Assembly (NCBI GenBank): GCA_044892505.1
Contig: CM097882.1
Coordinates: forward strand, 244,528,001 to 244,592,000
Length of the DNA stretch: 64,000 nt
Source: Schmidtea nova
Taxonomy: Eukaryota
Reading direction: 5' to 3'
The notes under the pieces are model-generated. The model worked only from the letters and a program-made list of their open reading frames with translations. It was not told where the DNA came from and ran no database searches. Every line of letters begins with the position of its first letter. Position 1 is the stretch's first letter. Below, one piece after another: positions 22,125 through 48,122 of this stretch. A program made the position numbers and the translations under genes.

Positions 22125-22143
22125 TCACTCGGGGTCCCCTTAA
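22125..22143 (-). promoter_or_regulatory. Putative polypurine tract region
   Basis: Minus strand TTAAGGGGACCCCGAGTGA abuts the 3' LTR; only partly purine-rich. Confidence 0.45.
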
Positions 22144-22843: not shown

Positions 22844-22916
22844 TTCTGTTTATTCTACTGATTAATACCTGTTACATCGATTTGTACATTTTTACACACG
22901 GATTTTTCGCCTCTTT

Positions 22917-24077: not shown

Positions 24078-24166
24078 TCTGTAATTTACAAATTTACACT
24101 TGTTATACTACACGTTTATTGTTGTTGTCGATTTTTACACTTTATTTACAGGGTCGTTCATTCTGA

Positions 24167-25579: not shown

Positions 25580-25668
25580 TCTACAACGATATTTACATCA
25601 ATTTCCCCATATTTTTGATTTTTCTGGTTCTTTATTTACACGTATTTACACAATTTTCCGCTTATTCA

Positions 25669-29100: not shown

Positions 29101-32100
29101 GTTATAATCCCCTTCTGCATATCTGTGCACTTTCTCTGTAATTGTTCCTAGTATTTCCAACGAATTTTTATTCTCCTTGAATTCCGATAATTTCTCCTGT
29201 GCTTTTGCCACGATTGCGTTTAATCTCTCTTGATAATCGGCTTTTGCATTGAACAACACTGCTTTGCTTCTTATTCGCGTTTGCATCTGTTTCATTCGTT
29301 GGTCTTGATACACTGCTTGTCTGAAGAATTGTCCATACTTCAATGCTTCCACCAGCTCTTTATATCGCTTGCTTATTTCTTTGTGCTGCTTTTGGATGTC
29401 ATAGAAATGTTCGAAGCTCATATCCGGATTCCATTGCTTATCACACCATTTCTTGATTAATCCGAATAGTTCTTTCTTCCTGTCTTCTAACTTGTATTCT
29501 CTTGGGTTTTCACTAACCCGTAGCGTATCTCTCGCTACTAACACTGCAAGGGTTTTTGGATCGTATGTTACTTCTAATAGATGTTTCAGTAACGCATTTT
29601 CTCCCCTTGTGAACACTTCATTACAATCTATGACCCACGAATCTCCTTCTGGTCTTTTCCACTTTAGCAATATTCTCCAGGTTTTACTGTTCTTTACCCC
29701 GATTGCTTGTTTCATGATCGATCCTCTAGTTAGTTCATTGATTTCCCACGTGGCATTTTCCGTAATATACTTTAGTATTCGGTGATTCGCTCTATCAATT
29801 GCATGATTCAAGAACGTTCGTCCTTCTTTATCTTTTGTCAACCAATTCGATCTGGTGTTTCCGAATAGCTTGATTATCTCATCGTTTCTTCCATGAATCG
29901 TCATCATCATAAGTGGAGTAATTCCTTCCCAATTCACTTTGTCAATTTCTCCTCCACCTTCGAGTATCATCTCCACGATCTCTTTCACTTTCTCGTTTCC
30001 GCTGTGCTTGATTGCATTATGTAACGCGGTATTACCGTCTTTGTCTTGTAAATTCAACGTCTGAGGGATCTCCTCTAGCAGCGTCCTTGTTATTGGATGT
30101 GCTGTTCTATCCTTCGCATAGTCCATTACATTCTTTCGAACTTCTGACAGTATATTGAAATCGTGCCACCATTTCCACTCTGGTATAATTTCTCTGGTTT
30201 TCTTTGCCAGTTCTTTGATGTCTATTATCTCCCTTCGGTTGTCTTCTAGACTTGTTTGCGGTTTTTGTTGTACTCGCAACATACTGATTCTCGCCGTCTG
30301 TGATCTTGTCATTACCCGTTTCTCTGGTAATAGAGTTACTGTCTTTGGTATTTTCCTGCATCGACATGCGTTCACGTATATTGGTCTTACCAATGGATTG
30401 TTCACCAATCGTACTCGCACGTTATTTTCATTTACTGTTGTTATTTCATATGGCCCTTTGCCTGGTCGTTGGAGTTTCTTGACCGTACCGGGTATTATCT
30501 CTGGTGTTTCGATTATCACCCAATCTCCAACTTTTAAATCATGTGCTTTCACATTCTTTTTCTGATCATGCAGATCCTTGTAACTCTCTTGATAGAACTT
30601 GATGTTTAGTTCCGCCGTTTTCCAGATTTCTTGCATTCTTTCTTTGAACTTTGTAACGTAATCGTCAACCTCCATGTACTGTGATAATGGTGGTTGGTAT
30701 TCTAAATCGATCGGTAAGTTGCAATCTCTTCCGTACATCAGTTGGAATGGACTTAGCTTTGTTGCCGCATGTATTGACATTCTGTATGCCATTAAACACA
30801 AGTTAATATACTCGTCCCAGTCAGTCTGATGTTTACTGACGTAATTCGACAGCATGCGTATCAATGTCCCATTGAATCTTTCTGTTTGACCGTTCGTTTG
30901 TGGATGGTATGGGGATGTTCGTAATTTCGCAATTCGGAAGTAATTCGTAACTTCGTCTAATATTTCACTCATGAAATTTGTTCCTTGATCCGTTAGGATT
31001 TTCTTTGGTGTTCCGTATCTGCAGCATATCTCTTCCACCAATATTCTCGCGACTGTTTTCGCTTTTTGATCCGGTATTGCGAACGCTTCTGGGAACTTTG
31101 TTAGATAGTCCGTGACTACTAATATGTATTGATTTCCCTTCAAACTTTCCGGCAATGGTCCAACTACATCCATTGCTATCGTTGCCATCGGTTCTGCAGG
31201 TATTGGCATTGGTTTTAGTGGTGTTTTCCACTTCGTTCCGACGTTCTTTCTTGTCGCACAGGTTAAGCAGTTCTTTATCCATTCCTTCACATCATCTTCC
31301 ATGGTTGGCCAAAAATACTTTTGTCTCAATCTCCCGATTGTCTTTTTCACTGACATATGTCCGCCTAATTTTCCGTCATGATATTGAGTCATGATTTCTT
31401 TTCGCCTATTCGCAGGTAAGCACATCAATCTCCGTTCTCCATCCTGTATCAATAACCATCCTTTTTCCATCACGTATCGGTGCTGATATTTCTGCATATG
31501 TTCGCGCAATACTTGGTTCTTGCCGAATATTTCTATTTCCTTTTCTTTCAAATACTGGCTGATCAGTCCCAACTCCTCATCTCCGAGTTGATCTTTCCTT
31601 AATTCGCTGAAATCCAAATCTTCCGCTATTAATGCACATATTTTTAGAGCGTTCAGGTTCACCAATTCTGGAAATATAAACCTCGACATGCAATCCGCAT
31701 TTGCATTTGCTTTTCCTGCTTTAAACTTTATGAACGGCGAGTATTCCTGTAACTGCATCGCCCAACGCATCAATCTACTTGATGATTCTTTATGTTGGCC
31801 TAACCATACCAATGGTTGATGATCCGTCGTGATATATATTTCATGACCCCACAGTAGGTACTTGAAATGCTTGATTGCCAATATTATCGCATAGGCTTCT
31901 CTTTCCGTGACTGAGTAATTCCTTTCATGTTTCCTGAAGGTTCGACTGTAATATCCGATTACTCTCTCTTTGCCTTCTTCATCAAATTGGCCTAGTACTG
32001 CTCCTGCTGCGTATCCACTTGCATCTGTTGCCAACAAAAATGGCTTCTTAAAATCTGGATGGACTAATATTGGCGCTGTAATCAGCTTGTCTCGTAATGT

Positions 32101-35100
32101 CTCAAATGCTGCTTGCTGTTCTGTTCCCCACACAAACGACACGTCTTGTCTTACTAATTCTTGCATTGGCTTTGATATTCCTGCATAGTCCTTGATGAAT
32201 TTTCGATAATATCCACACAATCCCAAAAATTCTTGTATTTGAGTCACTGTCTTTGGTGGTGGACATTCTTTGACTTTTTCGATATTCCTTGGATCTGGTT
32301 CTTTTCCTTTTGCTGATACAATGTGACCTAAAAATGTCACTTTCTCTTTTGCCCAATCGCACTTTGACGGCTTCAATTTCAGTTTCCACTGTCTTAATTT
32401 CACGAACACATTTCTGATGTCTTGTAAGTGATCTTCAAATGTTGCGGAGTAGATCAATAGATCGTCGATATACACCATGCATTGTTTTATGCCATGTGTT
32501 ACGAAATTCATGCATCTCTGGAATGATGCTGGCGCGTTTGTTAACCCAAACGGCATTTTCTTGAATTGGTACAGATCTCGTCCGATTGTAAATGCTGTCT
32601 TTTCTTTATCCTCGTCTTTCATTTTGATCTGCCAATATCCGCTTTTTAAATCTAGTGACGTGAAATAAGCTGCTCCTTGTAACGTCAATAACATTTCGTT
32701 TATATCTGGCAATGGGTACGTATCTCTTTTCGTAACTGCATTCAACCGTCTGTAATCGATACAGAATCTCTGAGTTCCATCCTTCTTTTTTACCATCACC
32801 ACTGGGAATTGCCAGGGTGAGCAACTAGGTTCGATGACCTCTGCATCTAACATTTTTTGTACTTCTTCTTCTGCTACTGCTTTTTGGGCTTCTGCCAATT
32901 TGTATGGTCGTAATGCTATTGGCGTTTCGTCCGTCAACGGTATCGTGTGTAATGTTACATCACATGTTCCCAAATCTAAATCTGATGCTGCAAATATATC
33001 TTTATATTCCATCAACAGTTTCTGTAACTGTTCTTTTTGTCGTTCGTCTAACAACACACTGTCGATTTTCCATGGTAATTCGCCTTTGCCTTTCTCATTC
33101 TTGTCTGGTATTTCGATTTCGGACATTGGTGTCAATTTACCCAATCTCTCATTCTCGTATATTATCTTGTCCTCTTCGTCGAAATTTACCAGATTGATCG
33201 GTATTTCTCCTTCCTGGTTTATCGTAACCAATTCTCTTGCCATTGGTAATTCTTTCTTTGCTTCGAACTTCTTACTTGGTTCGAATATCATATCTCCTTT
33301 TATTGTCGAATCGATCTTGACATAGCACATCATTTCGTGCCTCGCTGGCACTACTATTTGTTCCGCACTTGCCACTTTAACTTTCATTCTGCAGATTTTT
33401 CCTGTCCTATCTTTTAGTTTCATTGCTCCTAGATCAATTACGATTTCCTTGAACAGGTCTGGCATCAGGTCAGTTCCAATAATACATGGTACACTCAGCG
33501 ATGGTATTACAGCGATGTACGTGTTGATCTCTGCACCTCGATGCTTAATTTTTACAAACCATCTTCCGGCTACTTCTACTGTCTCTTGACTGCACGCGAT
33601 TACATGTACATTCGTCTTCTCGATTTCTCCTTGATTTTTCTCTGGTATATAATTAATGTCGATCGCCGAAATATTCGCGCCTGTATCGATCATAGCTTCG
33701 ATTTCTCTTCCATTTATTTCTACGGTTGTTGTTAAAATCGGTCCCATATTTGTGGACATAACCGCTATCGTATGCGTGTCTTTTAACGAGTTTACACTTC
33801 CACCTCGTTTTACTTTGCATCCTTCTGGAATTATCGGGTATATACTTGTCATCGGCATCATCTGCATCATATTCGGCTTCGCTTTGTATATCGGTTCGTT
33901 ATACATTGACTGAGGTGGAGCGCTGTATCTCCAATTCTCAACTGCACTCTTTTCGTTATACTGTGGAATCTGGTTTATATTCGCTTGTCCTCCTCGATCG
34001 TCATCGTCATCATCATCATTGCTTGAGTCATCTTGCGTTCGATATCCTCTCACTCTTTCCCATAATCCTTTCCTTTCTTTCTTTAGTTGTCGCCTTGCTT
34101 GTTCATCTTGCATTATCTTTTTGAATTTCCTTCCGACATCTTCATTTGTTCCTCTCATTTTTGCAAGTATCTTCAACAACCTCTTTATTCGATGTATGTC
34201 TTTTGAGTGTCCGTGTAACACCATCGTTTTCGCAAGGAATGGTAAAAACCCTACTACCATTTTCCAATTCACTTTCTTTTCTCTCTTGTAGATGTCGAAA
34301 CACGCTAACATTTGCGTTATTATCACTCTGACGATTTGTATAATCAATATAACACCCAGTATTCCAGCCATCATTTGTCCAAAGATCAGGAATCTTCCCC
34401 ACATTGCCTTCATCATATTTTCCGTAGCTTTTTTGAAATGTGCCGGTGACAACAGCAGTTCGTAATTCGGTCCTTCTCGATAATCCGTTCCTCCCGTTAT
34501 CGTTACGATATTTGACAGTAATGCTTCTCTTCTTGCCGGGAATAATATATTCTGCCTTGCTGCTTCTAAATCCTTTGGACTATAGATTCCGTTGTTTGAG
34601 ACATCTACGTCACTGAACTGTCTATCCTTTGACAACTGCATTAGCTCAAATTCTCTTGGTGCTAATACTTCAGTTCTTCCTGGGAACATAACCCATTTGC
34701 CATCTGGCTTCTGATAAAGCGGTCCGTACGCGTTACTACAGTTGAATGGATTTGGTTCAAACCCTGGTGGATTGATGATTCTCGTCACCGGTTGAACGTA
34801 TCGTACTTTTCCTTTATAATCGATTTCTAGTTCGTTTGTACATTGTCCAGGTTTCAACTGCGTTGTTGCTGCTAGCGATGCGTGTGTCTTTTCGCAAATG
34901 TATACGTACATTGCTTCTCCGACCACTCTTCCGAAATGTCCTTCTCTCAGTGGTAATAATGGCATCGCGCTATCTGGATTCGTAATCGCTACGGCCAACT
35001 TTGTCTTTAATATTTCCCGATTCAGTATGCAATCGTTATTTATCAGATCATAGTACACTTTTTGCAATGAGGCTTGTCCTCTATGGAATAAGAAATCCAT

Positions 35101-38100
35101 TTTATTATTCACATACAAGTGTAGCTTGATATCCATTGTGTCGATCTTGGGTTTCGCATTCGGCACTTCTTGTTTTGACACGTATATTCCTGGATAGTTT
35201 GTTTCGTATACTGTGGTACTGCACTTAAGGGTTGCTTTCCCTTTTATGAATCTCATGCCCACATCCTGATTTGTGGTTATCAACACTGTAGGTGTGGTTC
35301 TCATCTCTATCCGTTTTTCTCTATGATCTGGCTTCAATTGTCTTTTATTCTCTAACGCTTCTTTGAGATGTTTTGCTCTAGCTTTGTCATCATCGTCTTC
35401 TTCTTGGAATGTTTTCCCTTGAATTTCGTCGAACTTTGCTCCTTGTAGCAGTTGTAATTGACATTCGTTCACTTTTGGTTTATACACCAATGTTGACATT
35501 CCCGTTTGACACATGCTTCTGTCAATTTTACACATGGATAACGTTTTCATTTCTCCTGTTGTTGGTTCGAAGAATGCTTCGTAGCTTTTCAGTTCGACTA
35601 TATACGTATCCATTACCACTAGGTTGGTTGCAGGTACTCCAAATATCGGATAGGTTTCTCCTTGACAATACCCTTCTCCTCCCGTAATTCGTCCTGCTAC
35701 ATAATACGTCTGCTGCAACATCATTCCTGGCTTTCCTTTTATCTTGATTTTATCTCTCGTTGTCACTTCTCCATGCTTGAATAATGCTTCACAGTCTTCT
35801 CCTTGTAACACGATTGGTTCTCTTTCGGTTCCTGGCATGACAATTGCTGAATAATGTCCTCTCCCACAATAGAATGCGAATCTCGTCTTCTGTACCTTGC
35901 ATTCATTCACCATTGTCTTTATTAGTTCTGCCTCTTGATACACGTGATACCATTGTTCCTTTTTGATCTCTTTCAATTCTACTGGAGTTGCATCTTTGCA
36001 CTGCTCCGTACCTCTCAATGAGTACTTTTCTCCCAATTTCATTTGATCACAATCAAATACCTCGAACGTTGTTACACCTTCTGTGCTTAACAACCATACT
36101 AACATCATCATGATTATCGAGTTTAAATTCAACGTCGATCTCCCGTTTCCTTGCATCGTTTGTCTATTCTCCATTTCTCTCAATACTCCTTCGAGTTTCT
36201 TTCTCATAACGTTAGACCCTTCTTTTGTCTGGTTCTCTTTTATGAACTTTTCCCATCCTCCTTTTCTGAGGATATATGGTTCAATTTCCTTCTCGATAAT
36301 CATCGCCGTACTCTTGATATGTCTTCCCATCGGACTTGACTTCGGACTTCCTCGGCTTAGCGTTAGCAAATTGTATATCGTATACGAGATTGCTACTAGA
36401 TATTTGCTATCCGTCTCTGCTCCGTTAAGTAGCCTTTTTACCAACATCGTGGTTCCTTGCCAATCTAGATGATTCGATTTTGTTTTCGCCTTAATCAATT
36501 CTGGCATAATCGGTGCTATTGCATTGTGTAGCATCCTTGCCTTTGTACTAGGTTCGTTTATCCGCCACAAATTCTTTAATTCCGGGTCGATTATCGCTAA
36601 CACATCCATTATCGTTTTGGTGAGCCATTCCTCTCCTTGGCAGACTTGATTCTCCTCCTTGCCTCTGATTTCTGCGATTTTATCTAATTTCTTCAAGCAA
36701 ATCTCCCATTGCTCTTGTCTCCTTTCTTCCCTTGATTTTAGGATTGTTGTTGCTGGATCTGTCTTTGGTCTTCCTCTTGGTCGTTTTTCCATTCCGGTTC
36801 CCGTTTCTACAAATCTCACTGCTCTTCCCGTTTCTTCTGTAACATCTCTTCCTTCGTTCGCTCGCTGTTCTAACCATCTTTCCATTTCTTGAGTAAACTG
36901 GGGTTGTTCTTGCTCGTCTTCCGATTCGTTTACCATTTCTATGACTACCTCCTGTTCCACTCCTTGATCGTCGATTTCTGCTGGTGACGTTATTGGCATC
37001 TCTATTATTCTGTCAAAGATGTTCGCTGTTGGTTTTTGAGTCAACTTCGTTAATTCCTCTATCGCTTCATCACTGTCTGTTAGTATCTCATCTACGTCAT
37101 ACGCTTCTGGCGGTGTTCCCTCTCTGATTTTTACTGGCATTGTCCTTGTTTGTCCCGAACTTGTTCCTGGGGTCATTGTTGACTTCATCGGACTTGGTGT
37201 ACTCATGCTTCCCTTCGCTTTCTTTTCCTCTTTAAACTTCAGTGGTTGACCCACTATCTGTGCCACTGTTAGCGTATTCATTAGATCCAATTGCACTGGT
37301 GTCAGCCAGATTTCCAAACTATTATCCAACGATCGTCCTTGATGTTGCAGGTGGAATGGTAGTTCGTACATCAGTTTCTCTTTAACACTCTTCACTTTTT
37401 CTGTTAGCATCACCCAAAACTCTTCTTTTCTTTGATTCGGATACATTATCCTCAAATGTATTTTCTGTGGCGTTTCCTCCGCAAACTCTTTGTTTCTCCA
37501 CTTTTTTATTACGTCGTCTAGTTGCTCTGGACACCACTCGTTAACTCTCTTGTATTCTGCTATCGCCTTAGCTACTTTTCTCAAGTTCGTTATGTCTTCT
37601 CCATTTGAGATTATGAAACCTGCTAAGCCTTTTATTGTTTGTCTTTTTCCCCGAGTATTTCCTCTCAACCGCTCGATCAATTCACTCGTTTTCTGTTTCT
37701 CCAATTCTGCCCATATTACTGCAGTTTCTGGTCCGTCTAAGTCCGTTGGTAGTAACCTCCTTGTTACCATACATATTCGTTTCGTATTCCGTTCATATCT
37801 GTCTTCTCCTTCCGGATCTTCTTCATACACGCCTCTTTTCACTTTCCAACATTTCTCTTTGTTATCCCATTGTTTCTCTACTGGCGTCAATCGTCGTCTG
37901 TTGAGATCCAATTCTCCCAATATTGTCTCCCATTCTGGCTTCATCTGCCAGTTCCGATAGATTTCTACTATCTGTCTCAGCTTGCGCATAACGTCCTCTT
38001 GTCGTTTCTTTTTCCTTTCCTCATCTCTTGGTGTTGCTCTTGGCACATCATCCATTCTGATGACGTGTATTGTCTGATAATTATCCCATATGCCGATTTT

Positions 38101-41043
38101 GTACGCTCGTCTTTCGTCACGTTCGTTCAGTAGATGTTCTTTGTATTTTATCGCAATGTCATCCTCAAATTCGTCTTCCCGTTCTCGTTGCAATATCTTC
38201 TCGTTGATGACCTCTACTATTTCTCCCACTTTACTATCTGGTATTACCTCAATTTGTCTTGTCTCTTCGTTTGGTAATCTCACGGTAATCTTCAGATCTG
38301 ATACTTCTCCTCGTCTAAACATTTCTTTTCCTATCTTTGCGATTAGCTTGTCCGTTTTGAAATTCGAATGTCTCGTTTGACTTGTATCTCGTATGTTCTC
38401 GATACATTGCTTCAAATTCTCATACTCGCTTTTCGTCAGTTCCTTTCGATGTTTCTTGATTTGTTGGATGATCTGTTCTATCATCGTATTCAAATTCTCT
38501 GCCAAGATTCTTTCTTTTGCCTCTACCAACTGAGGTTTTATTCTCATCTCGTAACACGTATTCGCTTCTTTGATGATTCCTTGTAAGTTCTCTTCCTTCT
38601 TGGTGTTGCATATAGATAACGTTGTTATTTCTCCTGGCCAGATGCCTGTATCTATCATATGCGTTCCCTTTTTCACCAATCCGTTTTCCGAATATATGAA
38701 CTTGTCTTTGTACGAGCTTCCCAATCTGTCCTCAACCCATCTGTAAATTCCATCCGTCATTGGGTTCCTTATCCAGATTCTCGGTGAACACTCGTTTATC
38801 CATATCTGTATTATGTATTCGTTGAGTGGTTCTTTCAATAACTTCTCTATGAACTCTTGTATTACCCTCACTTCTCTTTCTTGTAACCACTCTTTGTACT
38901 TCATTTGCCATACTGCTCGTATAAACTTTCGGTATCGTTTCGTGTCAATAAACTCCTCGTTATGGATTACTTCCAACGCGTTATCCATCAGCTTCTGAAT
39001 TTCGTCTTCCGTTACTGACACTGTTTCCATCGTCTCAACTACTTCCATCTTTTTGTCCTCGTTTTCCGGTTCCTTTAGCATGTCTCCTGCCAGACTGCTA
39101 ACTTCGCTGTTGTCTTCTTCATCTGACAACTCTTGTCTTGGGTGTCTTAGCATCCCAATATGTGCGGTTGGTCTTGTTTCGTTTTTGCTAACTTCTTGTA
39201 TTAGTTCATTCTCGTTTCCTGTTACTTCAGCTTTTCCCATTCTTTTCTCCAACTCCTCTATTTCTTCCAACCGTCTTCGTCTTATTTTTCCCTTGAATAT
39301 TCGACTGATCCGAGTTTGATGTTTCACTGGTGGGGGAATTTTCTCCGGTTCCACCTCTCTGATGATCATCACGTTTATTTTCGTCTCCGTTACTCCCATA
39401 TCTTCCCATATATCGGTCATCTTTAACTTCACTTCTGGCAAATCCTCTGTTTGTAGGAATGCTTCTCTGGGCAGTTTCGTCACTCCCGGAATCATCTCAT
39501 TTACTTTATTGAACAATCTTCCCACTTCTTCTTTTACATCGTATTTGAATCGCCACACGTGATCATTCGGCATGATCACCAACATTCCTCTTTGTTTGAT
39601 TCTCACTTCCTCTTCTTGATTCGTTTCTTTTTCTGTTTCTTTTTCTGTTTCTGTTTCTTTTTCTTCTTCTTCATCTTTTTGATTCTGCTCTGTAGTTTCT
39701 ACTTCCTGACTCACTTCTTCTTGTTTCTGCTCTTCGTTTCTTTTCTCTTTAACTTCTAACTCGTCTGACTCATCCTGCTGCTTCTCTTCCATCATTGCTC
39801 GCATCATGTTGATCCTTGGATTTCCCTTTTTTAACTGTTGTAATCGTTGTTGCCTGACTTGTTCTTCTTCTCGTCGTACTCTAGCCCATTCTTGATTATG
39901 TTTCTGTTGACTCTCTCTGTTTTCTCTTTCGGCCTCAGCTTCTATTAACTGGATCATGTTTATCTTTGGTTGAGCAGCTTGTTGGCTTCCCTTTGCCATG
40001 CTTTCGATTATCTCGTGTAATCTGGATACCTCCTGTCTCAACTTAGCTTCTTTCATACTAGCTTCGTTTGCACTGCTGTTTGGGTTGTTCCGTTGTTGAC
40101 CCTGATTCCCATAGCTTGGTCGATTCCCGTAATTCGGTCTATTTCCACTGTTTGACCAACTTCTCTGTTGATTACAATCTCTTGACATGTGTCCGGTTTT
40201 TCCACATGTGTAACACGTTTTCCCATAACATCGATTTTCTGAGTGACCTTTTTGTCCACACAGTTTACAGGCTACATTCTGGAAACACTCTTGTTGCCAA
40301 TGTCCGTTTTTCCCACACGTCTGACATTGCCTATTCTGCCTGTCATTGTAACTATTTCCTCCATTCGTATTCACCGTAATATATCCGTTATTCTTCCTCG
40401 CTGGCGGTTCTTTGAACAATCTCTGCGAATGGGGAATACTTTGATTCATGTTTCTTTTTCCTTGTTCTTCATCTTCTGTCGTTTTTCCCATTACCGCCGT
40501 AATTCTCATGTCGTTCATTTCCATATGCAATTCGAATAGGTTGGCTGCTTCCAACGCTTCATCTACTGTTTTACATCCTTTGCATCCCACTTGTGCTCTG
40601 ATGTCAGGTCTCCTGAGACCTCGTACGAATAACGCTGTCATCAATTCTTCGTCTACTGGATTTCCTCTGTTAAATGCCAGTTTCGCCAACTTTCTTAATT
40701 CACTTGCGTACACTGCATTTGACTCGTTTCTCCTCTGTTTTCTTGCTGAGAACTCATCAAACGCTTCGTTCAACACTTTATTTATCCCAAACGTCTGTTG
40801 GAAGAACTCCTTGATTGCTTCCCACGTTCTGGGTGGATTACTTCCCGATCTCTTCTCAATATACAGATCCAATGCGCTATCTTTCAAGTATAGCGGGATT
40901 CGATTCGCTAACGTTTCTGCACTCCATCCGCATATATCCACGAATATGCCAAATTCTTTCAGGAACGTGTCCAATCTACTGGCGTCTCCATTAAATGGTT
41001 CGCCCTTGAATTTTTCTCTTAGATCTTCTCTGTGATCACTCAT
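26143..41043 (-). CDS. gag-pol: 4966-aa Gag-accessory-Env-Pol-accessory polyprotein
   Basis: Single open frame with CA-like N-terminus, 3 CCHC knuckles, DTG protease, YIDD RT, RNase H (TDAS), HHCC and DDE integrase, plus extra domains listed separately. Confidence 0.97.
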   Translation of the reverse strand: MSDHREDLREKFKGEPFNGDASRLDTFLKEFGIFVDICGWSAETLANRIPLYLKDSALDLYIEKRSGSNPPRTWEAIKEFFQQTFGINKVLNEAFDEFSARKQRRNESNAVYASELRKLAKLAFNRGNPVDEELMTALFVRGLRRPDIRAQVGCKGCKTVDEALEAANLFELHMEMNDMRITAVMGKTTEDEEQGKRNMNQSIPHSQRLFKEPPARKNNGYITVNTNGGNSYNDRQNRQCQTCGKNGHWQQECFQNVACKLCGQKGHSENRCYGKTCYTCGKTGHMSRDCNQQRSWSNSGNRPNYGNRPSYGNQGQQRNNPNSSANEASMKEAKLRQEVSRLHEIIESMAKGSQQAAQPKINMIQLIEAEAERENRESQQKHNQEWARVRREEEQVRQQRLQQLKKGNPRINMMRAMMEEKQQDESDELEVKEKRNEEQKQEEVSQEVETTEQNQKDEEEEKETETEKETEKETNQEEEVRIKQRGMLVIMPNDHVWRFKYDVKEEVGRLFNKVNEMIPGVTKLPREAFLQTEDLPEVKLKMTDIWEDMGVTETKINVMIIREVEPEKIPPPVKHQTRISRIFKGKIRRRRLEEIEELEKRMGKAEVTGNENELIQEVSKNETRPTAHIGMLRHPRQELSDEEDNSEVSSLAGDMLKEPENEDKKMEVVETMETVSVTEDEIQKLMDNALEVIHNEEFIDTKRYRKFIRAVWQMKYKEWLQEREVRVIQEFIEKLLKEPLNEYIIQIWINECSPRIWIRNPMTDGIYRWVEDRLGSSYKDKFIYSENGLVKKGTHMIDTGIWPGEITTLSICNTKKEENLQGIIKEANTCYEMRIKPQLVEAKERILAENLNTMIEQIIQQIKKHRKELTKSEYENLKQCIENIRDTSQTRHSNFKTDKLIAKIGKEMFRRGEVSDLKITVRLPNEETRQIEVIPDSKVGEIVEVINEKILQREREDEFEDDIAIKYKEHLLNERDERRAYKIGIWDNYQTIHVIRMDDVPRATPRDEERKKKRQEDVMRKLRQIVEIYRNWQMKPEWETILGELDLNRRRLTPVEKQWDNKEKCWKVKRGVYEEDPEGEDRYERNTKRICMVTRRLLPTDLDGPETAVIWAELEKQKTSELIERLRGNTRGKRQTIKGLAGFIISNGEDITNLRKVAKAIAEYKRVNEWCPEQLDDVIKKWRNKEFAEETPQKIHLRIMYPNQRKEEFWVMLTEKVKSVKEKLMYELPFHLQHQGRSLDNSLEIWLTPVQLDLMNTLTVAQIVGQPLKFKEEKKAKGSMSTPSPMKSTMTPGTSSGQTRTMPVKIREGTPPEAYDVDEILTDSDEAIEELTKLTQKPTANIFDRIIEMPITSPAEIDDQGVEQEVVIEMVNESEDEQEQPQFTQEMERWLEQRANEGRDVTEETGRAVRFVETGTGMEKRPRGRPKTDPATTILKSREERRQEQWEICLKKLDKIAEIRGKEENQVCQGEEWLTKTIMDVLAIIDPELKNLWRINEPSTKARMLHNAIAPIMPELIKAKTKSNHLDWQGTTMLVKRLLNGAETDSKYLVAISYTIYNLLTLSRGSPKSSPMGRHIKSTAMIIEKEIEPYILRKGGWEKFIKENQTKEGSNVMRKKLEGVLREMENRQTMQGNGRSTLNLNSIIMMMLVWLLSTEGVTTFEVFDCDQMKLGEKYSLRGTEQCKDATPVELKEIKKEQWYHVYQEAELIKTMVNECKVQKTRFAFYCGRGHYSAIVMPGTEREPIVLQGEDCEALFKHGEVTTRDKIKIKGKPGMMLQQTYYVAGRITGGEGYCQGETYPIFGVPATNLVVMDTYIVELKSYEAFFEPTTGEMKTLSMCKIDRSMCQTGMSTLVYKPKVNECQLQLLQGAKFDEIQGKTFQEEDDDDKARAKHLKEALENKRQLKPDHREKRIEMRTTPTVLITTNQDVGMRFIKGKATLKCSTTVYETNYPGIYVSKQEVPNAKPKIDTMDIKLHLYVNNKMDFLFHRGQASLQKVYYDLINNDCILNREILKTKLAVAITNPDSAMPLLPLREGHFGRVVGEAMYVYICEKTHASLAATTQLKPGQCTNELEIDYKGKVRYVQPVTRIINPPGFEPNPFNCSNAYGPLYQKPDGKWVMFPGRTEVLAPREFELMQLSKDRQFSDVDVSNNGIYSPKDLEAARQNILFPARREALLSNIVTITGGTDYREGPNYELLLSPAHFKKATENMMKAMWGRFLIFGQMMAGILGVILIIQIVRVIITQMLACFDIYKREKKVNWKMVVGFLPFLAKTMVLHGHSKDIHRIKRLLKILAKMRGTNEDVGRKFKKIMQDEQARRQLKKERKGLWERVRGYRTQDDSSNDDDDDDDRGGQANINQIPQYNEKSAVENWRYSAPPQSMYNEPIYKAKPNMMQMMPMTSIYPIIPEGCKVKRGGSVNSLKDTHTIAVMSTNMGPILTTTVEINGREIEAMIDTGANISAIDINYIPEKNQGEIEKTNVHVIACSQETVEVAGRWFVKIKHRGAEINTYIAVIPSLSVPCIIGTDLMPDLFKEIVIDLGAMKLKDRTGKICRMKVKVASAEQIVVPARHEMMCYVKIDSTIKGDMIFEPSKKFEAKKELPMARELVTINQEGEIPINLVNFDEEDKIIYENERLGKLTPMSEIEIPDKNEKGKGELPWKIDSVLLDERQKEQLQKLLMEYKDIFAASDLDLGTCDVTLHTIPLTDETPIALRPYKLAEAQKAVAEEEVQKMLDAEVIEPSCSPWQFPVVMVKKKDGTQRFCIDYRRLNAVTKRDTYPLPDINEMLLTLQGAAYFTSLDLKSGYWQIKMKDEDKEKTAFTIGRDLYQFKKMPFGLTNAPASFQRCMNFVTHGIKQCMVYIDDLLIYSATFEDHLQDIRNVFVKLRQWKLKLKPSKCDWAKEKVTFLGHIVSAKGKEPDPRNIEKVKECPPPKTVTQIQEFLGLCGYYRKFIKDYAGISKPMQELVRQDVSFVWGTEQQAAFETLRDKLITAPILVHPDFKKPFLLATDASGYAAGAVLGQFDEEGKERVIGYYSRTFRKHERNYSVTEREAYAIILAIKHFKYLLWGHEIYITTDHQPLVWLGQHKESSSRLMRWAMQLQEYSPFIKFKAGKANANADCMSRFIFPELVNLNALKICALIAEDLDFSELRKDQLGDEELGLISQYLKEKEIEIFGKNQVLREHMQKYQHRYVMEKGWLLIQDGERRLMCLPANRRKEIMTQYHDGKLGGHMSVKKTIGRLRQKYFWPTMEDDVKEWIKNCLTCATRKNVGTKWKTPLKPMPIPAEPMATIAMDVVGPLPESLKGNQYILVVTDYLTKFPEAFAIPDQKAKTVARILVEEICCRYGTPKKILTDQGTNFMSEILDEVTNYFRIAKLRTSPYHPQTNGQTERFNGTLIRMLSNYVSKHQTDWDEYINLCLMAYRMSIHAATKLSPFQLMYGRDCNLPIDLEYQPPLSQYMEVDDYVTKFKERMQEIWKTAELNIKFYQESYKDLHDQKKNVKAHDLKVGDWVIIETPEIIPGTVKKLQRPGKGPYEITTVNENNVRVRLVNNPLVRPIYVNACRCRKIPKTVTLLPEKRVMTRSQTARISMLRVQQKPQTSLEDNRREIIDIKELAKKTREIIPEWKWWHDFNILSEVRKNVMDYAKDRTAHPITRTLLEEIPQTLNLQDKDGNTALHNAIKHSGNEKVKEIVEMILEGGGEIDKVNWEGITPLMMMTIHGRNDEIIKLFGNTRSNWLTKDKEGRTFLNHAIDRANHRILKYITENATWEINELTRGSIMKQAIGVKNSKTWRILLKWKRPEGDSWVIDCNEVFTRGENALLKHLLEVTYDPKTLAVLVARDTLRVSENPREYKLEDRKKELFGLIKKWCDKQWNPDMSFEHFYDIQKQHKEISKRYKELVEALKYGQFFRQAVYQDQRMKQMQTRIRSKAVLFNAKADYQERLNAIVAKAQEKLSEFKENKNSLEILGTITEKVHRYAEGDYNESDIETIKNQMPVAFLLSKDGRLPIHWALRRKKENEVLEITKAMVKCEADMNTADDNGDTIMIIAARKKTNCKVLNELYEAGAKIEGKNGKNNSIIDIAIQWNNFEMIKFIKSIKKQDDIEYLANNVKNFSLTVMIHDIEKTRALLTWVNPVTKEPAFKINDHMEQNQNWCIRSALLRHKKPEIVEEFLKRRDLKFTNNSKEQERIGRWKDLFRKYVKEWANAKETIKQSRLKDIEPSKDMEIREFESSTLAVQAYERLIEEINVEDDISKGPGGGYRDFDDKSDSKKEDNKDNNEDNEKERQEEPKPTRNDKKGEAEERENSGTEDEHANYGKRTGSLLLRPEMLCIAILITIIGQGEAKKQYVTLEIIRGNEVYERICWKENLKKNDTLKCILSDLKRDVIQIKGLEKEKSYIICAIKQRGEPKAPQVTACQLYKATEALKIQKWIEKRSKETTRRTEVESEKGKNQTEAEEGIRNRTEKERITKNPAGKLTFQPELICVALILILIKRIMEDIDISVMTLVNIQDQRTTNGRCWGRNNEVIGISETRESREAETNEEIEITEMETEKTCELCLMEKAANGNRPGTSECKVFQAKEIIEFPKRKKQDQETIANEVVTVEIKNIGRRTIGMCWRKYIGIPTNNIIPQCRTRERGIPFQLNGFEVGQAYEICVIRRIREIIQRSLECKLYQTPEQINGTRTIEMGRSRQRKRKSRRTTTTNSQRTQQATTERTTIENEPESTTLIIWKIHKKVLEICWTLMPNSMRESPRNCQKTSNDKRETIEVEMRRLKTNAEYEVCAIEEVDAQGNQQERCETYYTPRNITIKGGTRKLEFRELSQKREQNEKEETIPNRQEKWEPEKVIEEVRRRQQQYEQWEAEWKGQYGVMINQSETPRMSIGKTVMGLISMGVFIACIPLITIMIVCWRYGMRNKTIAVKWPDVKVTNYNIKLSKEVREELKRRSKHEEMWVQIEDEELYEGKPVVIV
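26330..28068 (-). other. C-terminal membrane module: two signal/TM-like segments, about four FN3-like repeats, final TM
   Basis: IKGLEKEKSYIICA, ITEMETEKTCELC, LNGFEVGQAYEICV, MRRLKTNAEYEVCA match the FN3 L-x-x-L-x4-Y-x-V strand; TM VMGLISMGVFIACIPLITIMIVCW. Confidence 0.6.
28765..30054 (-). other. Two clusters of about three ankyrin repeats (29760-30054 and 28765-29052)
   Basis: DKDGNTALHNA, NWEGITPLMM, DKEGRTFLNHA; KDGRLPIHWA, DDNGDTIMIIAA, GKNNSIIDIA. Confidence 0.88.
30400..31400 (-). other. Integrase (HHCC, DDE, GPY/F)
   Basis: HDGKLGGH..CLTC; MDVVGPLP; TDQGTNF; HPQTNGQTERFN; GPYEI. Confidence 0.96.
31680..32060 (-). other. RNase H
   Basis: LATDASG, YSVTEREA, TDHQPL, NANADCMSR. Confidence 0.95.
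32310..32970 (-). other. Reverse transcriptase
   Basis: SPWQFPVV, RFCIDYRRLN, LDLKSGYWQI, MPFGLTNAPASFQR, YIDD (32461-32472). Confidence 0.97.
33400..33740 (-). other. Aspartic protease
   Basis: EINGREIEAMIDTGANIS (DTG at 33679-33687), IIGTDL. Confidence 0.93.
34200..36120 (-). other. Envelope glycoprotein (chuvirus G / herpes gB-type class III fusogen-like) in the polyprotein
   Basis: Internal signal-like SIIMMMLVWLLS; FDC...YSL...C start; Cys-rich ectodomain with CILNREILKTKLA, GEAMYVYIC, CTNELEIDYKG..YVQPVTRII, C..AYGPLY..W; TM at 34297-34392. Confidence 0.8.
36238..36708 (-). other. Bcl-2-like domain in the polyprotein
   Basis: Multi-helical region ending in BH2-like PYILRKGGWEKF; BH1-like DWQG is weak. 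Confidence 0.7.
37249..37461 (-). other. Ubiquitin/SUMO-like domain 2 in the polyprotein
   Basis: IHLRIMYPNQRKEEFWV..TEKVKSVKEKL..FHLQHQGRSLDNS..L..MNTLTV. Confidence 0.55.
38053..38295 (-). other. Ubiquitin-like domain 1 in the polyprotein
   Basis: LKITVRLPNEETRQIEVIPDSKVGEI...IAIKYKEHLL..GIWDNYQTIHVI follows a beta-grasp pattern. Confidence 0.6.
40174..41043 (-). other. Gag capsid plus three CX2CX4HX4C zinc knuckles
   Basis: PFNGD..FL..F; W..IKEFF..TF; KQRRNES..Y; LFVRGL; CQTCGKNGHWQQEC, CKLCGQKGHSENRC, CYTCGKTGHMSRDC. Confidence 0.93.
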
Positions 41044-41917
41044 CCCGATTCCACTATCTTGGAATGCTGTACTAGTTTTCTTTACTTCTAGTTCACCACT
41101 TGTTTCTGAATTCGACTCTTCTTCTTCGCTACTCTCTGTTTCGTTATCTCTTGATTCGCTTCTTGTTCTGTTTTCCCTGACTAGTTCACTGTCTATCGTC
41201 TCTACTTCGTTTTGTACTTCTAGATCTTCTGGGGTTTCTTCTTGATTCTCTTTATTACTCGAATTATCGCTGATCTCTACTTGTTTGTTCTTTTGTTGCT
41301 TAGGCTTGTTACCTGTTCTTGTCCTTTTCGCTGCTTTTCTTTCTGCTTCCGTTAAGATTGGTATTATACCTGATCTTGTTTCTCGTCCCTCAATTTTGTC
41401 TATTCCTCAACTGCTTATATTCTCAACTGCTTTTCTACTCCGCTTTTGCTTTGCTTCTTCTTTGATTTGTTTCTTTTGATTGCTCTGACTGCTAGATTGC
41501 TTTGAATTGCTTGATTGATTTGTTTCCTTAAAACAAATAATCACTTACACGATACGTCCCCGTTATCGTGTTTCTCGTCCCTCTCACGGGTGTAGTCATA
41601 ATTCATGAAGATCCCCATTTTTCAAATTTCCCTTGATTTTAAGTCTATTTAAATTATCTATGCAGTCGCATCAATTATCTATTCTTTATCAAATACACCA
41701 ATTACTTTTCCCCAGTTCCCCAATTACTTTGTCGCTCAGCGCTCTTATTATCCCCTTTACTTTTCTCAGGCTTCTCTGGCTCTGAGTTCAAATTTCCCCT
41801 TATCTGTCGACTACTCTGTTTCTCGACTATTCGCTTTATCTCCTATTCACACTACGTTTACTACTTCATTTCAATTCTCATCTCTACTCACCTTTAATTC
41901 GACTGACATCTCTCGTT

Positions 41918-42384
41918 GGCCTGCTGGGCTTTCCAGTCAGCGCCTTTCATCTCACCTTTTATCTCGACTTTATTACTCTCAACATCACTCATTATCTCAT
42001 TAGCCTGCTGGGTTTTCCAGTCAGCGCTTTTAATCTCACCTTTTATTGTTATCTCGTTACTCTCGACCACGACTGTCGTTTCATTAGCCTGCTGGGTTTT
42101 CCAGTCAGCGCTCTTGTTATCCTCCATTTATCTCTTTACTGTCGACTTTTAACTGCTCTTGACTCCGATGATCATCACTTTTGACCTGCTGGGTCTTCCA
42201 GTCAGCGTCCTCACTTTCACCACTTTATTATTACTCACTTTTATTCTCTCGATCTTTCCTGATCGTTATCATTGACCTGCTGGGTTTTCCAGCTAGCGTC
42301 TTTACCACTTTACCTGTCTTAACAAACCGGTTTTATTTTACTCTCTTCGAATCTCATGGTCTGCTGGTTTTTCCAGTCAGCACC
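41918..42384 (-). ncRNA. Array of six 27-nt bulged stem-loops (putative cis-acting RNA element)
   Basis: Copies at 41918, 42002, 42086, 42183, 42274 and 42358; consensus NNN-G-CTG-A-CTGG-(5-nt loop)-CCAG-CAG-NNN with covarying basal stems. Confidence 0.7.
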
Positions 42385-42710
42385 CTTCACTTACTCACTT
42401 TACTTTGCTACTCCTCCTTGTATGCATACTTTAACATCATTAGGCCACATAATCAGCTTTACTCGCATTTATCAATACCCAGGTGCGCACCTTCAACTCT
42501 CTCATTATTACCTCGGTTTCTTTCAACCCTTATTCCTCATTATTCGCTATTCATTTTCACTATTCATCATTTATCCTCATTATTATTTATTCATCTCCAT
42601 TATCGCTTGTTGATCTTCACTATCCGGATAGTTTTATACTTTATTTAGTCCTCATCTGCCTCACTTCGTCGTCTTTCTCGTGGGCTTTTACTCAATATTT
42701 TATTTCGAAC

Positions 42711-43270
42711 GAGAACTATGCTCACAGCTGAGAACTATGCTCACTAACGAGAACTATGCTCAATGACGAGAACTATGCTCAATGACGAGAACTATGCTCA
42801 CTGACGAGAACTATGCTCACTGACGAGAACTATGCTCACTGACGAGAACTATGCTCACTGACGAGAACTATGCTCACTAACGAGAACTATGCTCACTGAC
42901 GAGAACTATGCTCACTGACGAGAACTATGCTCACGGGCAAAACATGGTTGTTATGAGGGTTTTGCTTACTGATGGAAACTCTTTGCTCCGGGGACTATGT
43001 TCCCCGATGAGAACTATGCTCACTGATGGTGACTACAGGAATTATGTTTCCTGATGAGAACTACGCTCACTACGATGACTATGCTTATTGATGAGAACTA
43101 CGCTCACTGATGAGGACTATGTTCGCTGGTCTTGTGTTTATTAATGAGAACTCTGCTCACTACGAGAACTATGCTCACTATGATGTTGTGTTTTTATGAC
43201 GAGACCTATGCTCACTAGGATGTTATTTTTATGACGAGACCTATGCTCACTATGAGACCTATGCTCACGA
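42711..43270. repeat. 19-bp tandem array (GAGAACTATGCTCACTGAC): 12 copies at 42711-42934, degenerate copies to about 43270
   Basis: Read directly. Confidence 0.95.
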
Positions 43271-43967: not shown

Positions 43968-44426
43968 TTACAAGTACACTGTTATTCTTTCGGATACGGT
44001 AAGGTTGCACATAGGACATCGTTCATTTATTTTACAGTCATTACAGAATCGAAAATGCCCACATGGCAACAACATTATCTGTATTTTGTTCATTTCACAG
44101 ATATAACACGTCAGATATTGTCTCGTATGTTCTGTTGTTATTCTTATCCATTCATCGTGTTTTGTTGTTAACTGTTGTTCTAGCCTGTGGCACTCGATAT
44201 TCATCTCAGGGTTGCTTAATCTTTCTCTATACCATTGATATCGTGTTGTTGTATCCACTGTTATCTTATTCTCGCTTATGCTCATCATCATGTCGGCTCT
44301 TTCTGTGTTGTTTGTCGGTTCGTGATATTCTCCTACCTCGAGTCGTCTTAACTTCCTCATTATTGTCTCCACTGTTTCGTTGTTTGTTTCGAAAAACGTT
44401 TGCATTTCTTTTATTTTGTTCTCCAT
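43968..44426 (-). CDS. 152-aa protein with C-terminal IAP-type C3HC4 RING (putative E3 ligase)
   Basis: CYICEMNKIQIMLLPCGHFRFCNDC..CPMCNLTVSERITVYL at the extreme C-terminus; no BIR domain. Confidence 0.9.
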   Translation of the reverse strand: MENKIKEMQTFFETNNETVETIMRKLRRLEVGEYHEPTNNTERADMMMSISENKITVDTTTRYQWYRERLSNPEMNIECHRLEQQLTTKHDEWIRITTEHTRQYLTCYICEMNKIQIMLLPCGHFRFCNDCKINERCPMCNLTVSERITVYL

Positions 44427-44960: not shown

Positions 44961-44979
44961 AATCCCGGCTGAGCCCCCA
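44961..44979 (-). promoter_or_regulatory. Primer-binding site, tRNA-Pro type
   Basis: TGGGGGCTCAGCCGGGATT, 6 nt after the 5' LTR; two mismatches to the MLV Pro PBS TGGGGGCTCGTCCGGGAT. Confidence 0.85.
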
Positions 44980-45369
44980 AATTTATGCTGGTGTGTTGGT
45001 TAGATTGACAACTGAGATCCTTATGATTTTATACGTTAGGGTGATCTCGCCAACATAAAAACATTCCCCCGCTGACACCCATGATGTATCCCTAACTACT
45101 CATCATGTTGGTGCTGTGTCAACGTTGTGAAATGACAAGGCAGGTGAGCAACCTTTCGGCTACTATTCCCTTGTTTATTCACGGGTCCACCACTACCGTT
45201 AGAAGGTGTCTGTGGCTTTCTTTCGGTCCCACTTATGCTCTTTTCTTTTGTCCTAGGGTAATTTACATTTTAGATATCTGCAGCTTTAAATGAACCAGGT
45301 TTTCATTACCTTTAATTCTCATACATACTTCAACAAACAAGACAAATCAAATCATTCATTTATATACAT

Positions 45370-45933
45370 TTATTTGTAGTTCAACAATACAGAGGGTCGG
45401 ATTACGTTTAGTAGCTCTTGCTCAGATAGGCCACTGAGCAAGTCTACTTCGATCCCAAGGCTATCTGCGTATGCTCGTCTTTCCCTACGCTTTTTCGCTC
45501 CCAAGCGATTCCGTCTCTTTGTTCGTTTCGAGCCCTCCAGAATTATTGGGGATGTTGTGGTAGTTGTGATTGGGATGGTTTCTATTTCCGTTTGGGTACT
45601 TGTTGTCGTAGATATTGTGTCTACCCACCGATTAAAGGTGCTAGCCCGGATCACTGGGCGTAATTGCTCGGTGATGAACTCCTTGGTTGATGCCCTCAAG
45701 TAATTCGCCAGCTCCATCTTTAGGGCTGCAATCTCTCTGGCATGTTCCTCAGCTACTCGTTCTGCCCTGTATCTAGCCTGCAGGATGGACTTAACCTGCT
45801 CTGGGTTAAACCATGTAGTCTTAATTCGCTGGTGCTCGTCGTTGAGCTGTCTCAAGCGGTTTTCTAGGACTCGCGATCGTGCTTTATGTTCTTTGGCCTC
45901 TTGTTTGTGGTTCTTAGTTGAATGTTCGCTCAT
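45370..45933 (-). CDS. LTR-encoded 187-aa protein (coiled coil, Thr-rich linker, Arg-rich motif, Leu-rich tail)
   Basis: Start chosen at TTTTTCAG|AAATG rather than the tracked GTG at 46014; KRTKRRNRLGAKKRRERRA; stop overlaps AATAAA. Confidence 0.7.
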   Translation of the reverse strand: MSEHSTKNHKQEAKEHKARSRVLENRLRQLNDEHQRIKTTWFNPEQVKSILQARYRAERVAEEHAREIAALKMELANYLRASTKEFITEQLRPVIRASTFNRWVDTISTTTSTQTEIETIPITTTTTSPIILEGSKRTKRRNRLGAKKRRERRAYADSLGIEVDLLSGLSEQELLNVIRPSVLLNYK

Positions 45934-46122
45934 TTCTGAAAAATGTATCATTAATCGGGTTATGTATGGTTTGTCTGTTCTCTCAGTCACTTTATTATTA
46001 AACAGGTGTTTCACTTTTAGACCACTTCATGCTCACAAAGTCATAACAAAACCCAAAAATTGAATACATTTATTTTTTAACACACATATCCTCGTTCTTC
46101 GAATGATCGACTTCCTTGCGAT

Positions 46123-46758
46123 TTAGAGGAAGGGTCTTAATTCCTGATCGCTGGTATTCTCGTCGCGACGGATTCCATTCTCCCAATACATTTCTGGGGC
46201 TGGGTTCCAACTCAGCTTGTCTTTGTAGATAAACACCTCCCAGAGGCGAAGCTCCTTGGGCTCGGGGTGTTGTTCCACGGAAACACTTCCTGGCGCATTG
46301 GAATAAGCGAAGACTTCCTCAGTGTAGCGACACCGAGGCCTGTCTAGCAGCGTGTATCCGAGTTTGTGTAGCTCTTTTCCGGTCATCGTTCCGGTACTTA
46401 GCAGCCAGCGGGGTTGCTGTAACTCATCGCAGAATTGATAGAACCATCGGGGGTTCTCCGGCTTACTATGATCCGAGGAGAGTACCCAATCAGTATCCCC
46501 TTCCCACCGCAGCTGTAGTCCAAACGCGCAAGCTGGGGTGTTAGCCGCTAAGCTCATATGGGCCCTCATCCACCGTCGTAGGTGGCGACGTGATATTTCT
46601 GTCACCTTTCGAGGTGCTTCGTTTTCTCCTCTGACGTTTATGATCGTATTGTGTCGGATGACGGAGCGGGTGCGCCGTTTCTTACGAAGGATGGTTTCCT
46701 CTAGCTTTATCGGGTGCGCGATCATCGACTTCCTTTGGAGATTCTCTAGTTTCACCAT
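46123..46758 (-). CDS. LTR-encoded 211-aa protein of unknown function
   Basis: Open in both LTRs; TTTTCTTTAG 7 nt upstream, TATAAATA 58 nt upstream, AATAAA about 50 nt downstream. Confidence 0.65.
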   Translation of the reverse strand: MVKLENLQRKSMIAHPIKLEETILRKKRRTRSVIRHNTIINVRGENEAPRKVTEISRRHLRRWMRAHMSLAANTPACAFGLQLRWEGDTDWVLSSDHSKPENPRWFYQFCDELQQPRWLLSTGTMTGKELHKLGYTLLDRPRCRYTEEVFAYSNAPGSVSVEQHPEPKELRLWEVFIYKDKLSWNPAPEMYWENGIRRDENTSDQELRPFL

Positions 46759-47674
46759 AGTATTTCTAAAGAAAATGGTTGTTTGTTAACTATGGATTCT
46801 ATGGTATAACGGGCCTATTTATATCAGTCAACCCACCCGTTATACTTAATTTTCAACACTCATGTTCAACCACTCAGCTTTAACAGTTTTTATTGATCGA
46901 TAATACTATTTAATCACATTCAATCTCATCAGTCGTTTTCGATTAGTTCCTCATTTAACTAGTAATGATCATGCCATGTCGGGTAATTCTCGTAAGTTCC
47001 TGTGGTCATTGTACACTGGGGTTCATCATTTTATCGGTCCTCAATGCCTGTAATTTGTTTATCATCTCTCCTGGCGACTAAACATAGCTGACAGAGGTTA
47101 TCGATTATCCTTAACCATTGATACTAGGTTCACTATGCCCGAACTCGTACGCGCTAAGGTTGACATATACCTACCCTCGTCGTTACCTAATTCATAGGCA
47201 CTAATATTATTCACTACACGTATATCCCTCGTCTAGACCTCGCCACGATATATATCTTTCCCATACCACGGGTTTCTCGTTACGCTCGTTTACGACTACT
47301 AGTTTATGCTCGATACCCTATCATCGTGATGTATATCGTTTATATTAGATCATCGCTACCTTGATTTCGTTCACAATCATTAGGTCTTACTCGATACCCT
47401 ATGTGCATCCCCTTTTTTCCCCCCACCAAGTATTTAATAAACTTATGGTCCCGCCGCATCAGCACCTCACAACCGAAAGATTGTGTTGCGCTGAGAGGCC
47501 CCAAGAATCCGTCAGGCTGTTAGGCCTCCGGAAAACCTTATTGATTTTAATATGGTTAACAATTATGAGGGTTTATATGAATGATACAAAACATAACTCA
47601 ACCATACCTTTTATTTCCAACTGGTTTCCAATACAAGGTTGTTAGAAGTTATCAGTTACAACTTGCACTCGGTA

Positions 47675-47750
47675 AAAATGACATTACCAAATACTGATTT
47701 GACTTCAGTATTTATACTCAACCGGTGTTGTTGGTTAGCCAATCAGCATC
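47675..47750 (-). promoter_or_regulatory. Candidate LTR core promoter
   Basis: TATAAATA on minus (47709-47716), CCAAT box AGCCAATCAG (47737-47746), Inr-like TCAGT/TCATT downstream. Confidence 0.45.
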
Positions 47751-48122
47751 GAGTATGTGTGTATGTTTGATTCATTATTTTGTGTTGCCGGCTTTTTGGT
47801 GCCTAACTCAACTCAATGATTTATTTGGTTAATCATGCGGTAAGTTTTTCTTAGTCATCAATTTATTTTATTTTATTTTTGTTTTAGGTCTTTGGTGACA
47901 TCCGCCCACGCGCTGTCATATTCCAATTTTATCTGCTTCGCATGAGTGAGTTTTGAAGATTTTTGTTGTTTTGATTAATATTTTATTTCTTTTAGATGTT
48001 GCCGCCTATTTTGTTACGCTTTGGTGTTGGTAATTTATTTTGTTGTTATTCTGTATTTAATTTATTTTATTGATTGTACATTATTTTCAGATGCTGCTCG
48101 ATTTGGCTGGCCCAACATATAT

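Follow-up and report, generated by a model that had tools for sequence, protein, structure and literature searches.

A 29.1-kb retroelement with LTRs of about 3.1 kb lies on the minus strand of the window, by which we mean the whole 64-kb stretch of DNA that was analysed. Two open reading frames, named here ORF A and ORF B, are located within its 5' LTR and point in the sense of gag-pol. The features of the element, with (−) denoting the minus strand, are as follows.

44986..48117 (−): 5' LTR, about 3.13 kb, TG..CA, both ORFs intact
46123..46758 (−): ORF A, 211 aa, orphan, 5' LTR, gag-pol sense
45370..45951 (−): ORF B, 193 aa (second ATG at 45933, giving 187 aa), 5' LTR, gag-pol sense
44962..44979 (−): primer-binding-site-like 18-mer, adjoining the 5' LTR on the internal side
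43968..44426 (−): RING-finger accessory ORF in the leader, 152 aa (Pfam zf-C3HC4_3, E 6.9e-09)
42710..42946 (unstranded): 19-nt tandem array in the leader, TGACG in 8 units
41891..42398 (−): six bulged 27-nt hairpins (at 42384-41918) with interleaved splice-donor-like sites
26143..41043 (−): polyprotein, 4,966 aa, from the ORF list and Pfam
22328..26019 (−): four 3' accessory ORFs, from the ORF list and Pfam
19009..22124 (−): 3' LTR, with 3 substitutions and a deletion of 16 nt relative to the 5' LTR
20130..20765 (−): copy of ORF A in the 3' LTR, protein identical
19674..19958 (−): copy of ORF B in the 3' LTR, frameshifted, 94 codons, the coiled-coil part alone kept
45368, 26127, 26040, 25650, 25640, 25597 and 24150 (−): TGTA[ACT]ATA octamers, from a motif scan

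The two LTRs align over 44984-48118 and 19007-22125, the TG..CA ends of the 5' LTR falling at 48117 and 44986, and a TATA target-site duplication is present at 19005-19008 and 48118-48121. Since the LTRs differ by three substitutions and one 16-nt gap, the element inserted recently. The 18-mer next to the 5' LTR bears what we take to be a likeness to tRNA-Pro. The polyprotein contains zinc knuckles, a mononegavirus-type fusion glycoprotein, protease, RT, RNase H, integrase and ankyrin repeats. More than 100 open codons lie 5' of its first ATG (41044-41530, −); beyond them come a stop in the same frame and an acceptor-like site, and the true start of the protein may be upstream of that ATG. The 3' accessory ORFs encode a 116-aa protein, a 470-aa TRAF-like protein (RING, zinc finger, MATH), a 386-aa charged helical protein and a 171-aa protein with a hydrophobic segment.

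By its layout, set beside the published description of Burro elements, the element is of a Burro-like giant gypsy type. The layout of Burro / GYPSM1, the giant gypsy-like retroelements of planarians, is described in PMC6431247, and on that basis the likeness covers size (LTRs, a length of about 30 kb and a polyprotein close to 5,000 aa, here 29.1 kb and 4,966 aa), domains (zinc knuckles, ankyrin repeats, and a mononegavirus-type env placed in frame ahead of protease-RT-RNase H-integrase) and extras (MATH/TRAF as a domain or accessory ORF, and tandem repeats). In contrast to the same description, the TRAF protein here has an ORF to itself, downstream of pol. Of the Burro motifs, the BCL2-like, BIR and ubiquitin-like ones gave no match in the element by Pfam at E up to 1, a search to be set beside the paper's extra annotation, which used HHpred. 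The 54 polyprotein hits included no named Burro protein; three of them are unnamed relatives with env inside the polyprotein (42% identity), and their genomic loci were looked for and not found.

Other mobile and repeated sequences share the window. Positions 1-9045 (+) contain a further relative of the element, older, split into several ORFs and with an identity of about 75%, for which no LTR homology was detected within the window. A hAT transposase is found between 14-nt tandem arrays (13175-15724, −), together with a helix-turn-helix ORF (9245-9658, +), a DDE_1 fragment (16951-17415, −) and AT-rich satellite-like repeat blocks (54270-58950 and 62560-63630).

An earlier note on this DNA had described a 211-aa and a 187-aa ORF in the LTR, in sense orientation and each followed by AATAAA, the shorter protein having a basic stretch and then a Leu-rich tail. 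These observations hold: both frames are present on the minus strand of the 5' LTR, AATAAA occurs at 46074 and 45374, and both peptides can be read in the 5' copy of ORF B. The further statement that each LTR holds both ORFs is correct for ORF A, which is identical in the two LTRs, and incorrect for ORF B, which is cut in the 3' LTR by the 16-nt deletion. The missing nucleotides match 45672-45687 and lie between short direct repeats; counted from the first ATG, the 3' frame runs for 94 codons and then stops, so that neither the basic stretch nor the Leu-rich tail is kept in frame. In contigs of four runs, all from one study, the deletion was not among the best 12 of 89 indels in other copies; it is therefore probably an assembly error or a change confined to this copy.

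The surroundings of the two frames resemble one another. ORF A, which contains 8 Trp and two basic clusters, is preceded by TATAAATA at 65 nt and by a pyrimidine-rich YAG 7 nt before its ATG, and the AATAAA at 46074 follows 49 nt past its stop codon, with a G/T-rich tract behind. In ORF B, a YAG is positioned 2 nt before the second ATG, and the AATAAA at 45374 overlaps the stop codon. The hexamer is frequent on the A-rich minus strand, with 12 sites per LTR, so that AATAAA behind an ORF says little alone.

That protein-coding genes reside inside the LTR, as had been proposed, is backed by several modest lines of evidence, namely simulation, a codon model, the YAG layout and a synonymous excess in ORF B. 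First-order simulation produced no LTR with two ATG-initiated ORFs of at least 187 aa (0/2,000), and one such ORF in 0.6%. A codon model trained on the polyprotein scored the annotated frame as the best of six for both ORF A and ORF B, with scores below those of the internal ORFs. Moreover, a YAG 0-7 nt before the ATG was found at all seven accessory ATGs, compared with 23% of 698 ATGs, a pattern that was noticed first and tested afterwards. The five internal accessory ORFs with this YAG-then-ATG start begin at 44426, 26019, 25579, 24077 and 22843 (−), and the accessory genes mostly have a poly(A) signal behind them. A start common to all the accessory ORFs suggests one processing scheme, either cis-splicing or spliced-leader addition. 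As ORFs A and B are built like the other five accessory genes, each would probably be made from its own processed mRNA. Minus-strand intron ends were absent among the joints listed (15 of 45), which has no bearing on expression either way.

Contigs from the four runs cover the whole stretch and represent a diverse family. Among the best-supported 40 of 734 differences, four of the five in ORF B were synonymous (expected fraction 0.29, p 0.026), as were two of the five in ORF A (p 0.42, no excess) and six of the ten in both ORFs together (p 0.034). Within the same 40, the density of differences in the LTR, at 10 per 1,200 nt of coding versus 15 per 932 nt of non-coding sequence, was not significantly different (p 0.11), and the best 12 of the 89 indels included none in ORF A or ORF B. 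For the reading as genes these data give modest support, better for ORF B than for ORF A. Judged on sequence, ORFs A and B are probably genes.

The LTR ends (44940-45267 and 47400-48200) had contig depths of 19-40x and 7-8x the neighbouring bin, respectively, with many loose ends at 45230; by this measure, summed contig depth being a poor one, they seem to be common to more abundant relatives. Two placements of the ORFs are consistent with the TATA/AATAAA pairs: transcription starting at about 47690 would put them in R or U5, and starting at about 45335 would put them in U3. Genes in U3 are read from the 3' LTR, and genes in R/U5 can be read from the 5' LTR. If the ORFs are in U3, reading would be from the 3' LTR, where ORF B of this copy is broken; if in R/U5, it would be possible from the intact 5' LTR. 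The TGTA[ACT]ATA octamer, a motif identical to the Pumilio element, occurs seven times from the start of the LTR to the 3' LTR, in each case in a gap just behind a stop codon and never in the 20 kb of ORFs.

Homologues were sought for both proteins. For ORF B, 5.8 billion proteins (near-length only) gave 448 candidates and none at E up to 1, 1.84 billion representatives gave none at E up to 0.001, and viral contigs gave none; the best value in the ESM Atlas was 0.77, under the lead level, and fold searches with its structure model returned nothing at E up to 0.001. Similarly, 99 candidates for ORF A from the 5.8 billion proteins (near-length only) included no homologue, and none was detected in metagenome contigs, viral contigs or the ESM Atlas. 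Three hits of ORF A in the PDB were unrelated (E 0.5-2), its fragments matched no Pfam family, and neither ORF A nor ORF B matched any of the 54 long polyproteins. The structure model of ORF A was unusable (pLDDT 33). A winged-helix fold (ETS/HSF/IRF), an idea formed by eye, received no backing from the Pfam fragments or the PDB. ORF A is small, basic and an orphan, and is probably a nuclear protein too.

ORF B consists of an N-terminal long helix or coiled coil, a Thr-rich linker, a basic helix and a hydrophobic-acidic tail. A single-sequence model (mean pLDDT 68) contains two long, confident helices within residues 8-97 of 193, a low-confidence linker and the basic helix at 149-164. The basic stretch has 12 K+R (8 R) in 19 aa, the maximum being 9 in the 6,346 windows of seven other proteins of the element. 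When modelled as a homodimer, the 187-aa form of ORF B gave a parallel coiled coil whose contacts stay in register from residue 6 to residue 82, with a score of 0.51 versus 0.02 for the best of three controls, a run agreement of at least 59% and a pLDDT of at least 56. Among paired proteins, 21 of 30 microbial and 17 of 29 eukaryotic ones attained the dimer mark (animal proteins, 7 of 16; proteins lacking an older solved relative, 1 of 7). No single chain did so (0/23 and 0/30), and a coiled coil may pass through its likeness to solved ones. It appears most likely from these models that ORF B pairs via a parallel N-terminal coiled coil; the C-terminal part lies outside the confident interface, and the zipper-like tail is unused in the predicted dimer.

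The C-terminal piece of ORF B points to a different comparison, since its matches are to the Fos-family bZIPs. When the C-terminal part of the 5' copy was scanned as four overlapping fragments, each had the Pfam family bZIP_1 as its only or top match (E 0.0015-0.013, model positions 5-42), and the last 59 aa gave five PDB matches, all to Fos or FosB (E 0.42-6.2). These fragments were picked after the bZIP likeness had been noticed, and the best score of 19.0 bits (range 15-19) is below the Pfam cut-off of 27.6. Full-length ORF B had no bZIP match in Pfam or the PDB. Among five control basic fragments, one also matched bZIP_1 (E 0.033), and another matched an unrelated family (E 0.0019). PMC4676100 defines a bZIP by an N-x7-R/K basic motif with the first zipper Leu nine residues after the R/K, followed by heptads. 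Under this definition, N142 and R150 of ORF B form an N-x7-R motif, and heptad-spaced Leu residues follow; however, the first Leu is 8 rather than 9 residues away, and the zipper is limited to two heptads, with two Leu (L159 and L166) and then E173 and P180. A further difference from the Fos family is that pairing is predicted for the separate N-terminal coiled coil. By the defining tests, ORF B is not a member of the bZIP family; it may nonetheless work like one, with the pairing moved to the N-terminal coil. No consensus AP-1 site was found in the LTR or leader. The 42710-42946 array carries the TGACG half-CRE in 8 units, and four TGAGTAA sites are present in the leader; as the array is one amplified unit, this is weak evidence.

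The earlier note had compared the 187-aa protein with HIV Rev and had termed the similarity compositional only. Support for the comparison does not extend past composition: the REV family gave no Pfam match and Rev chains no PDB match, and no homology of ORF B to Rev, Rex, Rem or Rec was detected in Pfam scans, the PDB or the 1.84 billion representatives. In PMC5568270, these Rev-like proteins share an Arg-rich stretch placed before a Leu-rich stretch, and a coiled coil. ORF B is likewise small and basic, with an Arg-rich stretch, by composition alone, ahead of a Leu-rich one, and its predicted dimer supplies an oligomerisation helix that is not specific to Rev. In contrast to Rev, the quoted tail has no forward nuclear export signal (NES) pattern. 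With the NES class patterns, 1b-R and 1d-R being added by symmetry, the forward classes 1a, 1b and 2 did not occur anywhere in ORF B; matches to classes 1c and 1d contain Pro, and reverse-spaced patterns match residues 159-169. Shuffled versions of the Leu-rich tail matched some NES class in 89% of cases. The Rev label for ORF B is hence a hypothesis built on a weak, compositional likeness, and the Fos-type likeness would appear to fit somewhat better.

The hairpin array that had been proposed as the RNA target, at 41918-42384, is present as six bulged stem-loops. Its three outer pairs covary, each with two pair types and all six copies paired, and 59 of 60 cells are paired; the region has a z of -3.7. 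No Rfam match was obtained in 41000-48200. Donor-like sites (8 or 9 of 9 letters) are concentrated here, five of the six strongest in the 26 kb scanned being in the 0.5-kb hairpin array and none of the strongest within the 15-kb polyprotein, and in five of the six hairpins such a site lies 5-14 nt upstream. None of 5,000 shuffles of the array reached five donor-like sites, where the units are duplicates and not independent. This arrangement provides a real setting for the RNA-level regulator that the earlier note had in mind; it would also suit a packaging signal, U1-based protection from the many AATAAA sites, or a site for a host factor. Rev-type RNA targets are reported in PMC5568270 to be always in env or the LTR, whereas the candidate here is in the gag leader of a gypsy-type element. 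Within env and the LTR, no 200-nt window stood out for extended stable RNA structure except 46918-46719 (z -3.9).

Our best reading, and a tentative one with somewhat less than an even chance, is that ORF B would be a dimeric, bZIP-like nuclear regulator expressed from an LTR-internal accessory gene. ORFs A and B would be accessory genes of a Burro-like element that happen to be situated in the LTR, each with its separate processed mRNA. The ORF B dimer, paired as predicted, would bring its pair of C-terminal basic helices into the nucleus; there the helices might act as a degenerate Fos-type bZIP basic region and bind DNA or AP-1/CREB-type partners, and the outcome could be tuned transcription of the element or of host genes. 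It is rather unlikely that the basic patch is instead a nuclear or nucleolar localisation signal on a coiled-coil adaptor that acts on host proteins. The recognisable accessory products of the element are protein-interaction modules (TRAF, RING, ankyrin), the coiled coil is the confident part of the ORF B model, and the control fragments put the bZIP_1 match within the reach of chance; against the adaptor, no other basic stretch in the element is as long or as dense as the basic helix, and the helix lines up with the bZIP basic region in register, the Asn and the Arg among the matched residues. The two frames could also be passengers without a role at present, belonging to a cassette, captured or in decay, in a variable part of the LTR. 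A broken ORF B in one of the two LTRs, the lack of homologues in any of the searches and the absence of synonymous enrichment in ORF A would agree with this, as would the 7-40x greater depth of the LTR ends over the ORF region, which, for all that depth is a poor measure, may mean that many relatives are without the cassette. However, the long frames, their codon fit, the acceptor/poly(A) layout in common and the synonymous excess of ORF B argue the other way, as does the deletion not being among the best 12 of 89 indels in other copies, and we regard the passenger explanation as very improbable, the least probable of those considered.

Two further explanations involve RNA, and each seems quite improbable. 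In one, ORF B would be a Rev/Rex-like exporter that oligomerises on the leader hairpins by way of its Arg-rich helix, engages CRM1 through its Leu-rich tail and exports unspliced genomic RNA. Its appeal lies in the general Rev-like layout of basic motif, Leu-rich tail and coiled coil (PMC5568270), in hairpins that are a true repeated RNA structure, in the reverse-spaced patterns at residues 159-169, and in the many acceptor-like sites and the donor cluster, from which a route for unspliced RNA would be needed. Set against it are the missing Rev family and structure matches, the forward classes that are absent or contain Pro and the ease with which shuffled tails match; moreover, the array is upstream of gag and about 6 kb from the env-like region, unlike the Rev-type elements reported in PMC5568270, and host NXF1 can export without a viral adaptor (PMC10746203). 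In the other, ORF B or ORF A would bind the donor-adjacent hairpins and switch splicing or premature polyadenylation, with no part in export. The clustering of donor-like sites and their regular position upstream of the hairpins favour such a switch, and so do the covarying outer stem pairs in an element full of AATAAA; yet the units arose by duplication and are not independent, and no observation connects the array with ORF A or ORF B. Arrays in a leader 5' of gag can serve as packaging signals for the zinc knuckles of Gag, and the present one may equally be such a signal or a host-factor site. A broader and rather speculative proposal, which we consider unlikely, is that the element is organised as a complex retrovirus: seven accessory genes would be expressed from separately processed RNAs, and an LTR-encoded dimer with a bZIP-derived basic helix would be in control, acting on DNA or on the donor-side hairpins to switch between spliced and genomic RNA. 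If this were true, a Rev- or HBZ-type regulator would have evolved independently outside retroviruses.

Should the ORFs prove to be expressed regulators, these giant elements would possess control proteins of their own besides the modules for apoptosis and ubiquitin that they have captured, and the gene control of complex retroviruses would have a convergent counterpart. The hairpin array with its donor-like sites, like the uniform acceptor/poly(A) layout, lends itself to direct and cheap testing at the RNA level.

The element type is already known, and genes wholly inside a gypsy-type LTR may be its new aspect. LTR-internal genes in gypsy-type elements had no example among the titles and abstract openings searched, which did not cover the original Burro paper and its supplements, where such ORFs may already be shown, and they are absent from the Burro description in the available portion of PMC6431247. 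As described in the accessible section of PMC7264820, additional ORFs of LTR retrotransposons are internal, and most of them follow pol and precede the 3' LTR; ORFs A and B resemble these family-wide orphan ORFs of unknown function, and differ from them in lying inside the LTR.

Among retroviruses, the bZIP-like reading of ORF B invites comparison with viral bZIPs. HTLV-1 HBZ is a viral bZIP, and ORF B differs from viral bZIPs of the HBZ type in its sense orientation. A few complex retroviruses are known to have genes that lie entirely within an LTR, and sag of MMTV is located in U3. MMTV sag is listed in PMC12789967 as a singly spliced accessory gene. The likeness to sag is that of a protein gene inside an LTR which, in the present element too, would probably be expressed from a processed subgenomic RNA. 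In contrast to sag, the LTR here contains two whole genes, both of which have a poly(A)-like signal of their own, and the proteins are unrelated.
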